From a virus (taxonomy: Duplodnaviria > Heunggongvirae > Uroviricota > Caudoviricetes), in the IMG/VR virus record IMGVR_UViG_3300028591_000077: DNA of 64,000 bases; one strand, given 5' to 3'. The translations under genes and the position numbers were made by a program. The first letter of the stretch is position 1. Each line of letters begins with the position of its first letter. The notes beneath the pieces were generated by a model that was not told the DNA's origin, did no database searches, and saw only the letters and a list, made by a program, of their open reading frames with translations. Shown in pieces: positions 2,477 through 15,685 of this stretch.

Positions 2477-2670
2477 TGCCTGCTACTCCAACCGATGCTG
2501 AAACATTACGTCTTCTTGCTAGGCGCGTTGAACGCCTAGCAGAAGAGTATGAACACAATGCTCCGACATTAATCAAAACCACAGAGCTTAGATTAATCAA
2601 TGAAGCATGTCAATCATTGCTTGATAGCTTAGAAGCTGAATTAGATGCAAAACAAGGGCAAGAAAATTAA
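2476..2670 (+). CDS. Hypothetical protein
   Basis: 64 aa, overlaps upstream stop (TAATG), GGAGG RBS. Confidence 0.7.
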   Translation: MPATPTDAETLRLLARRVERLAEEYEHNAPTLIKTTELRLINEACQSLLDSLEAELDAKQGQEN

Positions 2671-2740
2671 TCTTGCCCTTTAATTTTTAAAAAATTTATT
2701 GTATTATAAAATATAAGGAAAAACATTCGCTAAATTAAGT

Positions 2741-2848
2741 ATGAGACATTCAGTTATTACATTACAACGCACAGCAACAACCGTAGCGACATTAGATATA
2801 GCCGCTGCGATTTTAGACGTGCAAGATTCTGGAGGAATCCACAAGTAA
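2741..2848 (+). CDS. Leader peptide 1 (35 aa, MRHSVITLQRTATTVATLDIAAAILDVQDSGGIHK)
   Basis: Follows GCTAAATT motif; codons 5-29 are only V/I/T/L/Q/R/A/D, matching the downstream tRNAs. Confidence 0.8.
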   Translation: MRHSVITLQRTATTVATLDIAAAILDVQDSGGIHK

Positions 2849-2932
2849 TTAAAACTGGTTGTTAAAACTCTTAATAAACTATCGTATAATATAATGCAGC
2901 AAACCTGCATGGTACGATAGGCTAAATCGGTA

Positions 2933-2968
2933 ACTTGTGGGTTCGCGAATAGCGAACCCTATTTATTT
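2933..2968 (+). terminator. Attenuator terminator 1
   Basis: GGGTTCGC-GAATA-GCGAACCC then T-rich tail; 2933-2944 also pairs with leader 1 end 2835-2846. Confidence 0.75.
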
Positions 2969-2980
2969 GGAAAAAAAGTG

Positions 2981-3009
2981 TTTACAAAAGATTAATTCTA
3001 TTGTATAAT
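2981..3009 (+). promoter_or_regulatory. sigmaA-type promoter (same architecture at 5221, 7678, 18624)
   Basis: TTTACA-17 nt-TATAAT, with TG just upstream of the -10. Confidence 0.8.
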
Positions 3010-3029
3010 AATACTGGAGCTGCTGAAAT

Positions 3030-3105
3030 GGTTCCTTACGTCAATTGGGAGACTATCATCCTTACAAGATGAAGGTTGCAGGTCCGAGTCCTGCAGGGAC
3101 CACCA
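3030..3105 (+). tRNA. tRNA-Val(TAC)
   Basis: Cloverleaf, CCA, T-loop TCCGAGT. Confidence 0.9.
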
Positions 3106-3110
3106 ATTAT

Positions 3111-3186
3111 GCTGGTTTAGCTCAGTTGATAGAGCAGCTCCCTCGTAAAGAGCAGGTCGGGAGTTTGAGCCTCTCAACCAGCACCA
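3111..3186 (+). tRNA. tRNA-Thr(CGT)
   Basis: Cloverleaf, CCA, T-loop TTTGAGC. Confidence 0.85.
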
Positions 3187-3190
3187 ACAT

Positions 3191-3265
3191 TGGGATGTAG
3201 CCAAGCGGTAAGGCAGGAGGCTTTGAACCTCCGATGCGCTGGTTCGAACCCAGCCATCCCAGCCA
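3191..3265 (+). tRNA. tRNA-Gln(TTG)
   Basis: Cloverleaf, CCA. Confidence 0.95.
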
Positions 3266-3499
3266 ATTAGAATATGACAGCCGAAAAGATCGCCACTTAG
3301 TAAGCTTGAATAGAGTAGGACTGATAGCTTCCGAATAAGCTATCATGTATAACATGCTGAGACAAGATTCTCAGAAGGGTTGACTTGACGCCATAGGTTC
3401 AAGCAGAGGGTACAGCGCAATTTCTACGTAGTTGTTGCCGAGGCCAAATAGTGCAGGCATGGGAAGAAAGCACTCTAAAAAATGTGCAACACCAGATAT

Positions 3500-3574
3500 T
3501 GAGAAGTCGTCAAGCGGTAAGACGCCTGTCTCTGAAACAGGTCATCGATGGTCCGAATCCATCCTTCTCAGCCA
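3500..3574 (+). tRNA. tRNA-Gln(CTG)
   Basis: Cloverleaf, CCA, T-loop TCCGAAT. Confidence 0.9.
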
Positions 3575-3665
3575 TTACCTATTTGCTCATACTAGTTGAG
3601 AGCAGACAAAAAAGAACGCTAGGTGAAACAAATTTTTAAAGGTTTAGGTTTGGAGTAGCCAATTT

Positions 3666-3750
3666 GCGGGTGTGGTGAAACAGGTAGACGCAAGGGACTT
3701 AAAATCCCTCGGCTTCGGCCGTGTCGGTTCGAGTCCGACCACCCGCACCA
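3666..3750 (+). tRNA. tRNA-Leu(TAA)
   Basis: Long variable arm, CCA. Confidence 0.95.
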
Positions 3751-3753
3751 TAT

Positions 3754-3814
3754 GGGTTTATAGTAAGCTCTGGTGAGCAAGCGCGCAAGTTCGGTTCGAT
3801 TCCGGAATAAACCC
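3754..3814 (+). ncRNA. tRNA-like RNA lacking an anticodon arm
   Basis: GGGTTTAT/ATAAACCC acceptor, GCTC-TGGT-GAGC D-like arm, TTCGG-TTCGATT-CCGGA T arm. Confidence 0.55.
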
Positions 3815-3920
3815 TAAACCAAGAATGGATTCTGGTGAATCCGAGTAGGTGAAGAAGAGTTCGAGTCTCTGAACTGTCTGGTTCGATTCCTGGCAGTGCA
3901 GGTGCAAATCCTACAACATT

Positions 3921-3995
3921 GGTCGTATAGCTCAATGGCAGAGCGGGCTCCTTATAAGGGCTAGGTTCCTGGTTCGAATCCAGGTGCGACCACCA
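3921..3995 (+). tRNA. tRNA-Ile(TAT)
   Basis: Cloverleaf, loop CT TAT AA, CCA. Confidence 0.9.
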
Positions 3996-3999
3996 ATAT

Positions 4000-4074
4000 G
4001 GGCCGATAGTTTAATTGGGAAAACACCCGCCCTGCAAGCGGGAGTTACGGGTTCAATTCCCGCCGTGTCCACCA
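4000..4074 (+). tRNA. tRNA-Ala(TGC), irregular acceptor stem
   Basis: Loop CC TGC AA, G3:U70 present, bulged acceptor. Confidence 0.6.
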
Positions 4075-4079
4075 AATAT

Positions 4080-4155
4080 GGGGCTGTAACTCAGCTGGGA
4101 GAGTGCCTGCTTTGCAAGCAGGATGTCGAGGGTTCGATCCCCTTCAGTTCCACCA
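4080..4155 (+). tRNA. tRNA-Ala(TGC)
   Basis: Canonical cloverleaf, CCA. Confidence 0.95.
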
Positions 4156-4364
4156 AGGCGAAGGACAACGCTTAATAACCAGTCTCATAAGCGAGAGTAT
4201 GGGTAACCAGTCCCAGAGGGTAGTGAAAGAGACAAGAATATAAGGAAAGAACCGGGATTACGCCTTATCGCGAATGGGCGCCCAATGAACCCCTAGAGAC
4301 GGTGAAGCTGCAGACTAGATAACGAGCTAAGGGGAAGTGTGGAGTAAATACCTTATATTATCAT

Positions 4365-4440
4365 GCCGCCATAGCTCAACTGGCAGAGCAATCGCCTTGT
4401 AAGCGATAGGTTGATGGTTCGATTCCGTCTGGCGGCACCA
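4365..4440 (+). tRNA. tRNA-Thr(TGT)
   Basis: Canonical cloverleaf, CCA. Confidence 0.95.
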
Positions 4441-4568
4441 GTTCAGATATTTCTGAATCGTGAGCTGACACGTATAAATCCGACACAAAGCCGCAAGAAA
4501 TGGGCGGCAACACTAATTAGTCGTAGGTGACGGACACCAGAACAAAATCAGCATCATATAACTAAATT

Positions 4569-4642
4569 GCCTCTTTAGTTAAATGGTATAACGAATCCAT
4601 GGTAAGGATTAATCGGCGGTCCGATTCCGTCAAGAGGCACCA
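4569..4642 (+). tRNA. tRNA-Thr(GGT)
   Basis: Cloverleaf, CCA, T-loop TCCGATT. Confidence 0.9.
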
Positions 4643-4650
4643 TTAAATTT

Positions 4651-4725
4651 GGGTCAGTAGGCTAACGGTTAAACTGTCGCACTGTCACTGCGATGTCGAG
4701 GGTTCGACTCCCTCTTGGCCCGCCA
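4651..4725 (+). tRNA. tRNA-Asp(GTC)
   Basis: Cloverleaf, GCCA end. Confidence 0.9.
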
Positions 4726-4730
4726 TATAT

Positions 4731-4826
4731 GCAGTTGTGATGCAACTTAGAAGACATCCTTGGTGATGAGCCGAGGTCAACGCAAATCGAAATAATTTGT
4801 TGAAGGTGCAAATCCTTCCATCCGCA
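4731..4826 (+). pseudogene. Degenerate class II (Leu-like) tRNA
   Basis: T arm GAAGG-TGCAAAT-CCTTC, mismatched acceptor, non-canonical anticodon loop TGATGAG, no CCA. Confidence 0.5.
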
Positions 4827-4833
4827 ACAATTT

Positions 4834-4908
4834 GGAGTCATAGTACAGCGGTTAGTATACCTGACTGTCACTCAGGAGATGAGGGTTCAACTCCCTCTGG
4901 CTCCGCCA
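4834..4908 (+). tRNA. tRNA-Asp(GTC)
   Basis: Cloverleaf, GCCA end. Confidence 0.95.
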
Positions 4909-4911
4909 TTA

Positions 4912-5036
4912 GAACCAGTACTTATTTCTTTTTCGCCTTACATGCGAGAGGTCGTTGGTTCGAGTCCAACCGTCGCGGCACGGGTGACGTGTAGCGACGT
5001 AGCTCAGTTGGGAGAGCGCTTATTACTAGTCTGGTC
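4912..5036 (+). ncRNA. Bulged-stem element 4: circularly permuted tRNA-Val(TAC) body with closed acceptor hairpin
   Basis: 3' half (anticodon, T arm, CGTCGC) at 4934-4976 precedes 5' half (GCGACG, D arm) at 4994-5020; ACCAG/CTGGT stem. Confidence 0.85.
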
Positions 5037-5043
5037 AAAATTT

Positions 5044-5119
5044 GGGGTTGTAGCTCAATTGGGAGAGCACTTGTCTGGCAGACAAGAGGTTGCGGGTTCA
5101 ATCCCCGTCGATTCCACCA
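5044..5119 (+). tRNA. tRNA-Ala(GGC)
   Basis: Cloverleaf, CCA. Confidence 0.9.
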
Positions 5120-5123
5120 ATAT

Positions 5124-5201
5124 ACCCTGTTAGCTCAGCTGGATTAGAGCGTGTGGCTACGAACCACAAGGTCGTGGGTTCGAATCCTACACAGGGTGCC
5201 A
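5124..5201 (+). tRNA. tRNA-Arg(ACG)
   Basis: Cloverleaf, CCA. Confidence 0.9.
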
Positions 5202-5313: not shown

Positions 5314-5403
5314 ATGAAAAACTTGAACATGCATGCTTATCATTACGGATTTGAAGGCTATGAAGGCTTCGGTTTTTTGATGCGCTCTGACCACCGATAT
5401 TAA
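5314..5403 (+). CDS. Leader peptide 2 (29 aa, MKNLNMHAYHYGFEGYEGFGFLMRSDHRY)
   Basis: GAAAGG RBS; codons 9-23 are only Y/H/G/F/E/L(TTG)/M, matching the downstream tRNAs. Confidence 0.85.
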   Translation: MKNLNMHAYHYGFEGYEGFGFLMRSDHRY

Positions 5404-5437
5404 TTAGTAAATTCGTCGCATTGAAAATATAAAACAA

Positions 5438-5469
5438 GGGTGGTCAGATAATGATCACCCTTTAATTTT
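5438..5469 (+). terminator. Attenuator terminator 2
   Basis: GGGTGGTCA-GATAA-TGATCACCC-TTTAATTTT; 5439-5448 is the exact complement of 5386-5395. Confidence 0.85.
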
Positions 5470-5471
5470 AT

Positions 5472-5560: not shown

Positions 5561-5646
5561 GGGAGCGTATTCCGTTAAGGACACGGGGCAGTCTGTAAAA
5601 CTGTTGCCATTCGGCTGGCTGAGTTCGATACTCAGAGCTCCCACCA
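5561..5646 (+). tRNA. tRNA-Tyr(GTA)
   Basis: Long variable arm, CCA. Confidence 0.85.
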
Positions 5647-5650
5647 ATAT

Positions 5651-5727
5651 GGTGTATGGAATCCGACGGTTTTGGATGCTAGTCTGTGAAACTAGATCAT
5701 TGGGTTCAACTCCCAGCATGCACCCCA
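5651..5727 (+). tRNA. tRNA-His(GTG)
   Basis: G-1:C73 pair, CCA. Confidence 0.85.
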
Positions 5728-6030: not shown

Positions 6031-6116
6031 TGCGGTAGAGTGGAACGGACAATTATAAACCATCCGCGGCTCATAACCGATGGGATACCGGGTTCGACTC
6101 CCGAGTACCGCAACCA
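6031..6116 (+). tRNA. tRNA-fMet(CAT)-like, enlarged D loop
   Basis: Ends CCGCAACCA as initiator tRNAs do; loop CT CAT AA. Confidence 0.7.
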
Positions 6117-6210: not shown

Positions 6211-6286
6211 GGCCGAGTAGCTCAGCGGTTAGAGCAGGGAGCTCATACCTCCAAGATCGGTGGTCCGAATCCACTCTCGGCTACCA
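6211..6286 (+). tRNA. tRNA-Met(CAT), probably elongator
   Basis: Loop CT CAT AC, ends GGCTACCA, T-loop TCCGAAT. Confidence 0.85.
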
Positions 6287-6363
6287 GGATATATATTCAA
6301 TTTCGCCAAGACTAGAGCACAGCCATTCATAAGGGCTGTGTAGGAGAATCCCTTGGCAACCAT

Positions 6364-6437
6364 GCAGACGTAATTCAATGGTAGAATGCCACCTTGCCAT
6401 GGTGGCTACACGGGTCCGATTCCCGCCATCTGCTCCA
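6364..6437 (+). tRNA. tRNA-Gly(GCC)
   Basis: U73 CCA, T-loop TCCGATT. Confidence 0.85.
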
Positions 6438-6862: not shown

Positions 6863-6874
6863 TTTAAAATTTTA

Positions 6875-7101
6875 GAGCCTATACTTATTTCTAGGACTGA
6901 AAATCCCCGTGTCCCTAGTTCGAATCTAGGCTCTCCCACCATAGGAGCCAATACTTATTTCGGATTCCGCGGTAGCTTAAAAGGTAAAGCCCCCGATCTA
7001 TAATCGGGAGATTGTCGGTTCAAGTCCGACCCATGGCATTGTGAGTTTGGCCACTTTGGGAGAGTAGCTCAGTTGGTAGAGCAGGAGTTAATAGTTAGGC
7101 C
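6875..7101 (+). ncRNA. Bulged-stem element 5: circularly permuted tRNA-Phe(GAA) with a nested element
   Basis: 3' half with CCA at 6894-6941, 5' half GGGAGAG+D arm at 7058-7085; outer GCCTA/TAGGC stem. Confidence 0.9.
6945..7052 (+). ncRNA. Nested bulged-stem element 5b enclosing a tRNA-Ile(TAT)-like cloverleaf (about 6966-7038)
   Basis: GA GCCAA T ACT TATTTC ... AGT TTGGC C; CCCGA-TC TAT AA-TCGGG anticodon arm, T arm, no CCA. Confidence 0.8.
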
Positions 7102-7735: not shown

Positions 7736-8342
7736 TTCGAGTGTTCTTTGAGAAAGGATTTATGTTGAACCATGTGCAGAGGGATTACCTCCTTGCATGG
7801 AAGTTGGCTAAATAACGCGATAAATTGTGGGATACTGCAATGTAAGCTAAGACCTGTATTGAAAGATACGGGTATTCCTGTCAAAACGTGATCATTGACA
7901 GGCTAAGCTGATTGTGCAACATGTTATGGTACACAAAGCAATTCTGTCTAGGCTCGTCCGATAAGAGGCTCTGGGAGCAATCTCATCCCGCCTGTGGAAT
8001 TAAGCCTGAGAAACTTAGTTCCCGGCATCTCAACCTAAGGATAGTGACGTTTTGAAGCGGCGAAAGCCGTGTATAAGAGCTGACAGAAGTACGAGTAGCC
8101 GTATGACGTCGTTCGATCAAGTATAAAATTGAAGAATGTGATTAATTTCTTCCTTGCTGAAGTTCGGTGAAAGTTGGGGGACATCAATTCCCTCTATTGT
8201 TCGGTGCTAGTCACCAATTTGTGAAGACCAAGGTCGCGCCTTGGCTCTCAGCCACAAGTTAATATGTGCGAATATGTGGAATAATAAGTGTTGTAAGATG
8301 AATAAAAGTCTCGCTTAGATCATTTCTCAAAGAATACTCGAA
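7736..8342 (+). ncRNA. About 600-nt structured ncRNA (ROOL-like candidate)
   Basis: 20-bp terminal helix 7736-7755/8323-8342, promoter immediately upstream, many internal hairpins, no ORF. Confidence 0.65.
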
Positions 8343-8393: not shown

Positions 8394-8480
8394 ATGTTAA
8401 GATTAGCTTCTATCAACGTTAAGCCTATTAGCATTCTCAAACCAGTTTGGGAAAATTTTGACATGCTTGTAGCTCAGTAA
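8394..8480 (+). CDS. Leader peptide 3 (28 aa, MLRLASINVKPISILKPVWENFDMLVAQ)
   Basis: AAGGAG RBS after GCTAAATT; I/V/K/P/W-rich core matches the downstream tRNAs. Confidence 0.8.
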   Translation: MLRLASINVKPISILKPVWENFDMLVAQ

Positions 8481-8518
8481 AGACCGTAAGTCCGATTAAA
8501 TCAATTAGACAAAAGATC

Positions 8519-8553
8519 CCCGCAGAGACTACAAGCTCTGCGGGTTTTATTTT
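8519..8553 (+). terminator. Attenuator terminator 3
   Basis: CCCGCAGAG-ACTACAAG-CTCTGCGGG-TTTTATTTT; 8525-8536 pairs with leader 3 end 8465-8475. Confidence 0.85.
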
Positions 8554-9589: not shown

Positions 9590-9658
9590 ATGATGAAAAT
9601 GACACTAAAACTCAAATCCAAAAAACTCAAACGTTTTCGTTGTGGCTTAATTGCTTAG
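9590..9658 (+). CDS. Leader peptide 4 (22 aa, MMKMTLKLKSKKLKRFRCGLIA)
   Basis: GGAG RBS; six AAA codons plus CTA, CTC x2, TCC. Confidence 0.8.
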   Translation: MMKMTLKLKSKKLKRFRCGLIA

Positions 9659-9692
9659 GATTCAACGTCATCTTGATTATGAATGTATTGAC

Positions 9693-9728
9693 TGCCGAGG
9701 TAATTAAGCTTATCTCGGCATTTATTAT
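9693..9728 (+). terminator. Attenuator terminator 4
   Basis: TGCCGAG...CTCGGCA-TTTATT; 9698-9709 pairs with leader 4 end 9645-9656. Confidence 0.75.
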
Positions 9729-10870: not shown

Positions 10871-11261
10871 GGGCTCGTACTGGTTTCGATTGGTATTTGA
10901 TGTTTATAACTACAGCAAGCTGATAACTTACTATCAAACAAAAACAAACGACAAAACTTTAAACCCTGCATTTATTGCCTCCAACAGATTCGTTGGTGCT
11001 CGCGCCTAATTTAAGGCCATAGTAGTCGAGAAGTAAAACTGAGTTAGATTGGTCGAGTTTAACTCTTTATAATCAGACCTCGGTCAAGAGAACATTAGCT
11101 TTATTAGATATCTTGATTTAAATCAATAAATAAGCTATCTGCGCGCCCCGTTGTGTTTGAAAAGGAGCGGACAGAGAAATATTCATGAACACATAAAGCT
11201 GTAATTGACGTTATAGGGGTTTGGTATCAAGACCGGGGTTCGACTCCCCGCGGGTCCACCA
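10871..11261 (+). ncRNA. ssrA: tmRNA
   Basis: GGGCTCG...GGTTTCGA 5' end, G3:U acceptor, T arm and CCA 3' end, tag frame ...KTNDKTLNPAFIASNRFVGARA*. Confidence 0.9.
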
Positions 11262-11690: not shown

Positions 11691-11787
11691 AGGGGATTAC
11701 GATAATTGGCAAGTCCGTCGGTCTTCAAAACCGATCAATCCGGCTCCAACCCGGAGAGCGCGGGTTCGATTCCTGCATCCCCTGCCA
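11691..11787 (+). tRNA. UGA-decoding tRNA (anticodon TCA), Trp-like acceptor with long variable arm
   Basis: AGGGGAT/ATCCCCT-G-CCA, TCGGT-CT TCA AA-ACCGA, TCCGG/CCGGA variable stem. Confidence 0.85.
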
Positions 11788-11872: not shown

Positions 11873-12541
11873 ATGAATAAAAGAGTAAAAACGTTTCTAT
11901 TTGCAATTTTTGCCGGTATTGCCATTGGCGTCGGCGGATTGCTTTTTATTTTATCAAAAACATATATTCCAGGTAATTGGGGTAATATTGTCGGTTCGTT
12001 GTTATTCCCGGTTGGATTAATTACAATTTGCTATTGTAAATTTAATTTATATACTGGAAAAATTGGCATTGCTCCAAATAAAGGTGTAAATACTAATGAT
12101 TTGAATGTATTTGAGTGGCTAGCTTGGATTCTATTAGGCAATATTGTCGGAGCGTTTGCCTTTGGATTGTTAGTTTATCCATTCACTTTGCTTGGAGGAA
12201 GCTTCGCCGATACCGTCCATGCTATTGGGTTAGCAAGGGAAACCATGGATCCGATTTCAATGGCTGGAACATCTGTCTTATGCGGAATCTTAGTTTATAT
12301 TGCGGTTTATTTCTTCAATAAGTCTGATGAGTACTTCGGCAAAGTCGTCGGTGTCTTGGTTCCTATTGCGTTCTTCGTATTAGCCGGATTTCAGCACTGC
12401 GTTGCCAATATGTTCTATATGGCGGCTTCTGGTAGTTGGACATTGGCGTCTACTCAAGCACTAGTAGGTTGTATCTTAGGTAATTCTTTCGGTGGATTGC
12501 TTGCCAATTTGCCGGTTGTATATTTTAAAGGAGCTAAATAA
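11873..12541 (+). CDS. Formate/nitrite transporter (FNT, FocA/NirC family)
   Basis: FPVGL...LYTG and AGFQHCVANMFY motifs, multiple TM helices. Confidence 0.9.
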   Translation: MNKRVKTFLFAIFAGIAIGVGGLLFILSKTYIPGNWGNIVGSLLFPVGLITICYCKFNLYTGKIGIAPNKGVNTNDLNVFEWLAWILLGNIVGAFAFGLLVYPFTLLGGSFADTVHAIGLARETMDPISMAGTSVLCGILVYIAVYFFNKSDEYFGKVVGVLVPIAFFVLAGFQHCVANMFYMAASGSWTLASTQALVGCILGNSFGGLLANLPVVYFKGAK

Positions 12542-13051: not shown

Positions 13052-13168
13052 ATGATAACTATATTGGCAGTTTATGGTATCGGACTAGGGATTTTGAACA
13101 TTTTAACCCTTGGAATTCTATTCTATTTGAAATTTGGTCAAAAATTATTGGCTAAATTAAAACGGTAA
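13052..13168 (+). CDS. Small membrane peptide (38 aa)
   Basis: AAGGAG RBS, hydrophobic. Confidence 0.5.
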   Translation: MITILAVYGIGLGILNILTLGILFYLKFGQKLLAKLKR

Positions 13169-13182
13169 AATATTTACCATTA

Positions 13183-13263
13183 CATAGAAAAAAAGCACAA
13201 CCACAGTGATGTGGCGTCGCAAAGCTATAGGGCCTTGGAGGAAGGCAGCCAGTTGCTTCTGTG
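13183..13263 (+). promoter_or_regulatory. c-di-GMP-I (GEMM) riboswitch
   Basis: GCACAA-CCACA GTGA TGTGG-CGTCGCAAAGCTATAGGGCC...GGCAGCCAGTTGC matches the GEMM core; lies in the 5' UTR of the operon. Confidence 0.8.
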
Positions 13264-14757: not shown

Positions 14758-15685
14758 ATTTTTATTGTTTCTAGCCGGTTTATTCGCTATTACTGCTTTA
14801 TTTGGGACGACTTATTCTGCTTGGGCTTTTACAAATACTACTGATGTAACCAATAATGTTCAAGTTGAAGTTCCTACTTGGACATTTGGTGACCAAGGTC
14901 TTGCCAAAATCGAAAATATTTCTGGTTTAAGCTATTTAACAGCTGAAAAAGAAGAAACTATTACGCAGGGAAGCACTGAGGCAGTTAGATTCACAAATAC
15001 CGGTGGAACTCATGCAAGAGACCATATCTTCTATGTCGATTTAGACCAAGATTATGATTTATACGATATAGCTACTTGTAAGATTGAATTTGATTACTAT
15101 CATACTTATAAGAGAGAACAAAAAGATAAAGGTTTCCCAAAACTTCAATTATTCCATGATAGTATTGGCAGAGGAGCGGCTCAAGGCGGCGATGATACAA
15201 TAACTGAAATCGCACCTTATGTTGTTACAAACATCGATGAAGATTGGTGGCATTTGGAATATTATATCACTTCTATGTGCCCAACAATTGCCGACCATCA
15301 AGATAAGCCACAAAATAACTATAAAGTAAATCGTATTAAATTTGCTGATAGAGGAGTTTATGACTACGCTGATGTAACTGGCTGGTTTGTTATGGACAAT
15401 TTAATGATTACAAATGAACCAGGGGCTAGATTAGGTCTATTTAATAGAACTGCCGGCGATACAGTTGGAAAATTCTTCTGGTTTAAGGTTGCTTGGTCTG
15501 GTGATCTACATTCTTGTATTCTTACAACAAGTGACCCAAGTTTGGCTGTTTGGGATGATGAATCTACAAAGAGCCCATTCTATGTTAAACTATTAGCAAA
15601 AGGTCAAGTTGTTATTACAGCTACCCTTGAAATTGGAAGCAATCACGAGATATTCACAATTTCTAATACAATTACAATAAATTAG
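14747..15685 (+). CDS. Secreted protein with SipW-type signal peptide
   Basis: MKSK...GTTYSAWAF N-terminus. Confidence 0.6.
   Translation: MKSKFLLFLAGLFAITALFGTTYSAWAFTNTTDVTNNVQVEVPTWTFGDQGLAKIENISGLSYLTAEKEETITQGSTEAVRFTNTGGTHARDHIFYVDLDQDYDLYDIATCKIEFDYYHTYKREQKDKGFPKLQLFHDSIGRGAAQGGDDTITEIAPYVVTNIDEDWWHLEYYITSMCPTIADHQDKPQNNYKVNRIKFADRGVYDYADVTGWFVMDNLMITNEPGARLGLFNRTAGDTVGKFFWFKVAWSGDLHSCILTTSDPSLAVWDDESTKSPFYVKLLAKGQVVITATLEIGSNHEIFTISNTITIN

Follow-up and report, generated by a model that had tools for sequence, protein, structure and literature searches.

A candidate codon-matched leader attenuator at the head of a phage tRNA gene array

Introduction

Does a short reading frame at the head of a phage tRNA array sense the decoding of the very codons that the tRNAs behind it serve, and does it thereby set their transcription? 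Why phages carry tRNA genes is itself debated, the proposals being that these genes compensate for codon usage, stand in for host tRNAs that are degraded or help the phage evade tRNA-cleaving immunity. According to the abstract of one article, the tRNAs that some viruses encode serve to counter tRNA cleavage (PMC12409363). The DNA considered here, a stretch of 64,000 nucleotides that is referred to in full as the window, comes from an uncultured large phage of rumen samples (sheep or cattle). Its first 22 kb contain 43 ARAGORN calls (42 tRNAs and one tmRNA), together with a ROOL RNA and a c-di-GMP-I riboswitch. The initial annotation of this DNA, made from the letters alone, read the first short ORF of the array, termed Leader 1, as part of a transcription attenuator. 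Below, we analyze this reading and weigh it against its alternatives.

Results

Layout of the Leader 1 unit

The Leader 1 unit stands at the head of the tRNA array and is preceded by a 651-aa gene, a 64-aa gene and a terminator at 2654-2680. The elements considered are as follows:

2654-2680, + strand: intrinsic terminator with a 10-bp stem and then a T-run, directly 3' of the 64-aa ORF; it closes the 651-aa/64-aa operon
2697-2712, + strand: promoter-like site, a variant of TATTGTATAATATAAT with two mismatches to the recurrent 16-mer of the phage
2726-2740, + strand: box TTCGCTAAATTAAGT with its core GCTAAATTA at 2729-2737, conserved and abutting the ATG
2741-2848, + strand: leader ORF, 35 codons and TAA
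2753-2827, + strand: codon run, the proposed sensing codons (25 codons, for V, I, T, L, Q, R, A and D alone)
2825-2839, + strand: weak "1:2" hairpin, GAUUCU with GGAAUC, a competitor for the upper half of the antiterminator 5' strand
2835-2846, + strand: antiterminator 5' strand, which takes in the final four sense codons plus the first stop-codon base
2854-2931, + strand: spacer domain, a 7-bp helix (2854-2860/2925-2931) around a hairpin (2879-2920)
2862-2890, + strand, with its 16-mer at 2880-2895: promoter-like site inside the spacer, one mismatch to the phage promoter consensus
2933-2944, + strand: antiterminator 3' strand, of which the final 6 nt are the first 6 nt of the terminator 5' arm
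2939-2968, + strand: intrinsic terminator with a stem of 8 bp (6 G-C), a loop of 5 nt and a U-tract; the hairpin is 2939-2959
2981-3009, + strand: sigma-70-type promoter behind the terminator and ahead of the first tRNA, TTTACA-17-TATAAT, matching the consensus at 11 of 12 positions
3030-5201, + strand: tRNA cluster 1, the proposed regulated genes (15 tRNA genes)

Codons of the leader ORF and tRNAs of cluster 1

As the initial annotation had stated, codons 5-29 of the ORF specify exclusively Val, Ile, Thr, Leu, Gln, Arg, Ala and Asp. Its reading of individual codons was also correct, with all three Leu codons of the run being TTA, the Arg codon being CGC, and ATA, ACC and GCC being present. 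The tRNAs of cluster 1, bounded by the leader-1 terminator on one side and the next promoter on the other, follow in the order Val, Thr, Gln, Gln, Leu(taa), Ile(tat), Ala, Thr, Thr, Asp, Asp, Val, Ala and Arg(acg), and a fifteenth tRNA at 4000-4071, found by Rfam only, has an anticodon loop that reads Ala-TGC. This Ala-like tRNA carries a C at position 33 and was missed at default settings. When a doubtful ARAGORN call of "His(atg)" at 4730-4828 (99 nt, without Rfam support) is put aside, the tRNA identities of the cluster are exactly the eight amino acids of the run, as had been claimed. By strict wobble, 22 of the 25 run codons (22/34 in the whole ORF) are cognate to cluster-1 tRNAs, the exceptions being GTT and the two ATT codons of the run.

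Against the window's long ORFs, where cognate codons account for 0.317 of the total, the 22/34 in the leader corresponds to a binomial P of ~8e-5, and for the amino-acid set the values are 0.47 in the background and 27/34 in the leader (P ~1e-4). The 25-residue run is the longest for its amino-acid set in the six frames of the 64-kb window, the next being of 19 and 16 residues, while at the codon level the leader has a run of 17, as compared to a maximum of 7 among the 636 other small ORFs (20-45 codons) of the window. To remove the choice of cluster end, the leader was scored blind against all 990 contiguous blocks of 44 tRNAs. The best block extends exactly from Val3030 to Arg5124 (3030-5201) and ends at the last tRNA before the next leader; blocks that start at the next two tRNAs tie with it because the codons of these tRNAs are redundant. 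The ORF is, therefore, enriched in codons that match the product it would control, as is expected of a leader attenuator.

Predicted RNA switch

The pairing of 2835-2846 with 2933-2944 that had been proposed, with its overlap with the terminator 5' arm, stands. The helix comprises 12 bp with one G.U, and its 3' strand covers 6 of the 8 nt of the terminator 5' arm (2939-2946). The duplex formed by the last 33 nt of the ORF with the terminator 5' arm and loop has an energy of -19.3 kcal/mol (P=0.001 against 3000 random 33-mers from the window). The spacer domain between the two strands folds with a z-score of -4.7, and the leader folds overall have z-scores of -3.7 to -4.7.

Co-transcriptional folding had been suggested as a check of this helix. 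We folded the RNA that exists before the terminator 3' arm emerges and varied its 5' availability to mimic the position of the ribosome. The antiterminator formed with a probability of 0.91-1.0 when the RNA was available from its 5' end, from the ATG or from the rear of a ribosome halted within the run, and with a probability of 0 when it was available from 2862 on only, which mimics a ribosome at the stop codon. In the predicted folds, there is thus an antiterminator that excludes the terminator and depends on ribosome position. The intrinsic terminator lies between the leader ORF and the proposed regulated genes, and is conserved in three relatives (L021, L162 and L006, described below).

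Masking the hairpin at 2825-2839 leaves the antiterminated state (-36.5 kcal/mol) and the terminated state (-37.0 kcal/mol) only 0.5 kcal/mol apart, and with this hairpin free, the terminated state is better by 4.5-7.6 kcal/mol. At equilibrium, with the terminator 3' arm out, the terminator wins in every state with a probability of at least 0.94. As the terminator is favoured at equilibrium, antitermination has to be kinetic, and the modelled folds point to kinetic control of termination.

Diverged relatives keep the structure and not the peptide

Relatives were recovered via the 651-aa neighbour as a marker, and the percent identities given here are those of this neighbouring protein. Four diverged copies of the module were recovered, namely L021, L162, L163 and L006. 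In L021 (96%), the ORF carries 13 substitutions, all in codons 2-26, and the helix strands and terminator are unchanged. L162 (85%) has a 35-codon ORF behind the same box, then a terminator, a TATAAT promoter, tRNA-Val(tac) and Thr(cgt). Its helix keeps the same register to the stop codon and terminator arm as that of the window, and differs by three compensatory pairs and three half-compensatory single changes to or from G.U. L163 (88%) encodes a very different peptide, with the helix strand kept as nucleotides in another frame and the stop codon directly 3' of this strand, after which the contig ends. L006/L001 (59%) has a 43-codon ORF behind the box, then a terminator, a TATAAT promoter and Val(tac)-Thr(cgt). 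This ORF pairs through its 3' end with the arm of the terminator that follows it. In amino-acid identity, the eight tRNAs that open the L006 array agree with those of window cluster 1. In the alignment of the helix, 97% of cells are paired, as compared to 17-47% when the partner strand is slid, and RNAalifold revealed one further compensatory pair, in the L162 terminator. At the position of the spacer, L162 has a hairpin of other sequence without the promoter motif.

The ORF itself behaves differently from the helix. Between the window and L162, 49 of the 108 nt of the ORF differ (17, 13 and 19 by codon position) and only 12 of 35 residues are identical (34%), with the other two frames only slightly lower. 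With no codon-position bias and low peptide identity, the peptide sequence is not under clear purifying selection. Cluster-cognate codons, however, number 21-22 in all five copies, with enrichment P values of 7e-5 to 8.5e-3, each calculated against the long ORFs of the source itself (source G+C 0.37 to 0.52); the L006 leader is weakly enriched. Judged from these sequences, composition that is kept while sequence drifts is what a sensing leader would predict, and not what a functional peptide would.

Some relatives did not contribute to this comparison. L167 and L168 are 98-99% identical with identical leaders and are thus uninformative, and L005/L032, L164 and L166, with no tRNAs behind the marker gene, were set aside. 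Among GenBank phages, no relative was found beyond tRNA-level matches. Directly upstream of the box and leader of L162, at ~12230-12300, is what resembles the 3' end of a tRNA (T arm and CCA), such that in L162 the leader could be transcribed by read-through from a tRNA further upstream.

We also compared the leader with known families. In Pfam and PHROGs, there was no match for the leader peptides of the window, L162 or L006; the ORF was called as a gene in one assembly by the gene caller. In 2650-3035, none of the Rfam leader families (His_leader, Thr_leader, Leu_leader, Trp_leader and others) nor the T-box was found at E<=5, and none reached the gathering score across the whole window.

Start codon, box and promoters

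No Shine-Dalgarno (SD) sequence is found within 20 nt upstream of the leader-1 ATG, the nearest AGGA being 21 nt upstream, unlike the other genes here and leaders 2-4, which have strong SDs. What abuts the ATG is the GCTAAATTA box, which occurs in 14 copies on the + strand of the window (at 2729, 5274, 7149, 8352, 13151 and nine more positions) and in none on the - strand. In five related phage genomes (G001-G005), the corresponding strand ratios are 24:1, 35:3, 27:1, 10:0 and 32:1. The wider consensus, built over 88 sites, is TATTTGCTAAATTAwwT, and the boxes are often found behind terminators, 30-60 nt ahead of genes. From this distribution, the box is probably a phage-specific promoter element. 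An exact 17-mer search of IMG/VR found the box in other large phages, along with some chance coding matches, and returned no Leader 1 homologue.

The spacing between box and ATG is kept in L021, L162 and L006. An ATG follows 26 of 86 boxes, mostly heading tiny ORFs, and could belong to the box's own consensus, such that the leader-1 ATG alone is not evidence of a start codon. Going by the position of the box, the leader-1 transcript could be leaderless and begin at the A of the ATG, or it could begin just past the ATG. The ORF is, on the other hand, kept open in four diverged lineages (joint chance ~4e-5), and in the relatives the helix strand still runs up to the stop codon. The attenuator reading presumes that the leader-1 ORF is translated.

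Other promoter-like sites surround the leader. The 16-mer TATTGTATAATATAAT recurs ~30 times on the + strand, and its variant at 2697-2712 is kept in L021 and is not evident in L162 or L006. The site inside the spacer (2862-2895, with the 16-mer at 2880-2895) is likewise kept in L021 and is absent from L162. Together with the terminator, it would yield an RNA of ~70 nt. Contigs from RNA runs (Logan) break inside the leader (2476-2754), and their depth figures are per contig.

Downstream of the terminator, the initial annotation had noted the promoter at 2981-3009 and the consequence that attenuation would add to basal expression. Both points hold, as the promoter is conserved in L021, L162 and L006, with TATAAT at the same place. 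While in sister units 2-4 no promoter stands between the terminator and the regulated genes and the terminator would be the sole gate, this is not the case in unit 1. With a conserved promoter 3' of its terminator, unit 1 can only add to basal expression and cannot gate it alone. It would thus modulate an existing basal output, and might do so at another stage of infection.

Sister units and other phages

Three further units of the window combine an SD-led ORF (5314-5403, 8394-8480 and 9590-9658) with a terminator and a tRNA within 8-11 nt. As wholes, they cover 5314-5471, 8394-8553 and 9590-9728, and each is codon-matched to its own cluster. The complementarity between ORF end and terminator is significant in all three (P=0.0003, 0.03 and 0.04), and for the second unit the cluster match ranks 1 of 637 small ORFs. 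Relaxed ARAGORN settings add three genes to the second cluster:

5561-5646, 5652-5727 and 6032-6112: tRNAs missed at default settings, found by relaxed ARAGORN as Tyr, His(gtg) and Met

The CTA and CTC codons of unit 4 also match Leu(tag) and Leu(aag) downstream.

In another phage, IMGVR_UViG_3300031992_000025, homologues of units 3 and 4 keep the end motifs and differ in their middles. The unit-3 homologue, with Leu as TTG and an abundance of Ala, Thr, Pro and Val, stands before tRNAs for Ala, Thr, Ala, Pro, Val(gac) and Leu(caa). In the unit-4 homologue, there are three AGA codons, and the tRNAs behind it are Arg(cct), Arg(tct) and three for Lys. When clusters were swapped between the window and this phage, each leader matched its own cluster better than that of its homologue (8 vs 5, 13 vs 5, 9 vs 6 and 7 vs 4).

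A permutation test of codon set against cluster had been suggested for Leader 1. We used a blind pipeline that takes every terminator at most 75 nt upstream of a tRNA and chooses the ORF by rule. For the 19 terminator-tRNA units so obtained, the permutation P was 0.00025, and for the 14 units outside the window it was 0.025.

The leader-terminator design is not universal in the phage family. The closest complete IMG/VR relative, G002, has no obvious such units. In L042, a box-ORF-terminator unit before Val(tac) is not significant at the codon level (21/41 vs a background of 0.44, P=0.22); by hand count, and not by computation, it looks amino-acid-matched, and it is not counted as support. In phage B, an ORF at 6867-6923 rich in Gln, Trp, Ser and Ile was rejected, with 600 nt, one promoter and an apparent coding sequence between it and its tRNAs, and a unit at 6284-6409, before Leu, Tyr and Phe, is not codon-matched. 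L023 holds a 29-codon SD-led ORF (14931-15077), with Gln-Gln-Leu(TTA) and then a part rich in Gly, Tyr, His, Phe and Ser. Its ORF end pairs with the terminator at -20.9 kcal/mol, and Gln(ttg), Gln(ctg) and Leu(taa) follow, where the contig ends.

Discussion

Proposed mechanism

We propose, with moderate confidence, that Leader 1 is a ribosome-mediated transcription attenuator that senses the decoding of cluster-cognate codons. Each part of this reading that lends itself to computation, namely the codon match, the switch geometry, the conservation and the drifting peptide, came out as the initial annotation had it. In such a mechanism, transcripts that start upstream of 2741 would carry the 35-codon ORF, and 2835-2846 could pair with 2933-2944 and so sequester the terminator arm. 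Under smooth translation, the ribosome at the stop codon would cover 2835-2846, the hairpin 2939-2959 would form and transcription would terminate at the U-tract. A ribosome slowed at any of the 25 run codons would instead leave this strand free to pair once 2933-2944 is made, and with the antiterminator paired, RNA polymerase would read through into tRNA cluster 1. The read-through output would add to that of the promoter at 2981-3009. The quantity sensed would be the decoding rate of the cluster-cognate codons, i.e., the supply of the tRNAs that read them, and the result would be negative feedback on the phage's own tRNA production.

Alternative readings

The alternative that survives best, unlikely as we judge it, is a translation-coupled attenuator or insulator that reports translation in general, or the coupling of transcription and translation, with the codon composition having no sensing role. 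The conserved helix/terminator switch needs just a ribosome that reaches the stop codon, the antiterminator is the default without any translation, and the L006 leader is weakly codon-matched, all of which would suit such a device. However, it does not explain why 21-22 cognate codons were kept through 45% nucleotide divergence, why the best tRNA block is exactly the adjacent cluster, or why the sister leaders match their own clusters and co-vary with them in another phage.

We consider it improbable that the ORF is an ordinary small-protein gene with its own terminator, in which an Ala/Thr/Val/Ile-rich composition serves the function of the peptide and the match to the tRNAs is coincidental. 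A protein would account for an ORF that is kept open, for the 35-codon length shared by three variants, for a few conserved residues, including an invariant Gln-Arg pair, and for the prediction of the ORF by one assembly's gene caller. Yet there is no codon-position bias, the peptide reaches 34% identity as against 85% for the neighbouring protein, neither Pfam nor PHROGs gave a match and no SD is present. The 3' end in L163, conserved as nucleotides and read in a different frame, also speaks against a protein, and the helix between the stop codon and terminator arm, kept via compensatory changes, would be left unexplained.

A structured non-coding RNA that contains the ORF only incidentally, either a ~70-nt sRNA started from 2880-2895 or a protein- or RNA-binding leader, is in our view just as improbable as a protein. 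Such an RNA would agree with the strong fold (z-scores of -3.7 to -4.7) and with the 16-mer at 2880-2895 being one mismatch from the phage promoter consensus. The internal promoter motif is, however, absent in L162, where the ORF-end helix is kept, and no Rfam family, T-box included, is found at E<=5. The openness of the ORF and the enrichment of the codon set across lineages would, furthermore, have no explanation.

That a chance ORF lies beside an ordinary terminator is very improbable: short ORFs are common in AT-rich intergenic DNA (637 of 20-45 codons in the window) and the initial annotation was free in its choice of what to highlight, but the length of the run across the window, the scan of tRNA blocks, the P value of the duplex, the compensatory pairs and the permutation P each speak against it.

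Comparison with known attenuators

Leader-peptide attenuators that respond to several amino acids are known. The thrL leader has Thr and Ile codons, ilvL of ilvGMEDA has Ile, Leu and Val codons, and ivbL is likewise a multivalent leader attenuator. Leader 1, read as an attenuator, resembles these in having a short ORF with a long codon run for several amino acids followed by a terminator, in a mutually exclusive antiterminator with its upstream strand in the 3' part of the ORF, and in a decision made by ribosome position under kinetic control, the terminator being the more stable hairpin. It differs from them in that its targets are tRNA genes and not biosynthetic enzymes, in being phage-encoded, in a set of eight amino acids at the level of isoacceptors (TTA, ATA, CGC), in lacking an SD and in having a promoter 3' of the terminator. 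By analogy, the anatomy of Leader 1 is that of a leader-peptide attenuator, closest to the multivalent thrL/ilvL types.

The segments can also be named as in trpL, with a 1:2 hairpin (2825-2839), a 2:3 antiterminator (2835-2846/2933-2944) and a 3:4 terminator (2939-2959), and with segment 2 masked by the terminating ribosome. In the trp attenuator, too, the terminator wins at equilibrium and antitermination is kinetic. Unlike in trpL, segments 2 and 3 of Leader 1 are separated by an 86-nt structured domain, and the 2:3 helix is predicted to form by default even on untranslated RNA, such that a lack of translation would favour read-through and not super-attenuation.

Attenuation of a component of the translation apparatus, as opposed to a biosynthetic pathway, has a precedent in the pheST attenuator with its pheM leader peptide, a cellular system that responds to one amino acid and governs an aminoacyl-tRNA synthetase. 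T-boxes are similar in that a terminator/antiterminator decision upstream of translation-related genes reports tRNA status. T-boxes, however, bind the tRNA directly and without need for translation, and neither a T-box nor a specifier structure is detectable in Leader 1.

What is new is thus the target, the tRNA genes of a phage, while the type of control is itself known for amino-acid operons. Full-text literature searches gave no description of leader-peptide attenuation of tRNA genes; a Corynebacterium paper that shares subject terms lists only leaders of amino-acid operons.

A modular circuit

More tentatively, we suggest that jumbo phages carry modular, codon-matched leader attenuators, one per tRNA sub-cluster, each of which would sense how well tRNAs are supplied. 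The first unit of this circuit would be Leader 1, possibly leaderless from the ATG beside the GCTAAATTA box. A given tRNA set would then be raised only when the matching host tRNAs are limiting, for example due to anticodon-nuclease defences or decay of host tRNAs, and production would be shut down once the phage tRNAs restore decoding.

If true, the phage would measure the decoding of its cluster codons and adjust tRNA supply by feedback. This would be the first attenuation control of tRNA genes, extending a textbook mechanism to a new target class, and the idea of "need-based tRNA" would become directly testable. The leaders would, in addition, offer a guide, from sequence only, to which tRNAs form one regulatory unit in uncultured phages.

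Other elements of the window

Several other elements were observed around the tRNA array. The pattern GAGCnnAtrCTTATTTC occurs at 6875, 6945, 7563, 8633, 8768 and 19121, and also in L002, L004 and L023. It is joined to fragments resembling tRNAs, either permuted or without a D arm, and the 17-nt pattern has matches in more than 119 IMG/VR stretches. The tmRNA of the phage is flanked by Leu(tag) and Leu(aag), and a tRNA-SeC(tca) was also called (coordinates 10871-11261 and 11691-11787). Inside this region of RNA genes, at 11873-12541, is a gene of the formate/nitrite transporter family (PF01226, E=2e-33). The c-di-GMP-I riboswitch of the phage is at 13184-13260 and is preceded by the GCTAAATTA box at 13151. 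In two rumen RNA runs, the contigs of the ROOL RNA (7746-8331, 210 bits) are far deeper than all others of the region; one of these contigs, 7763-8271, with a depth of 594 in one run, has adaptor sequence on both ends.
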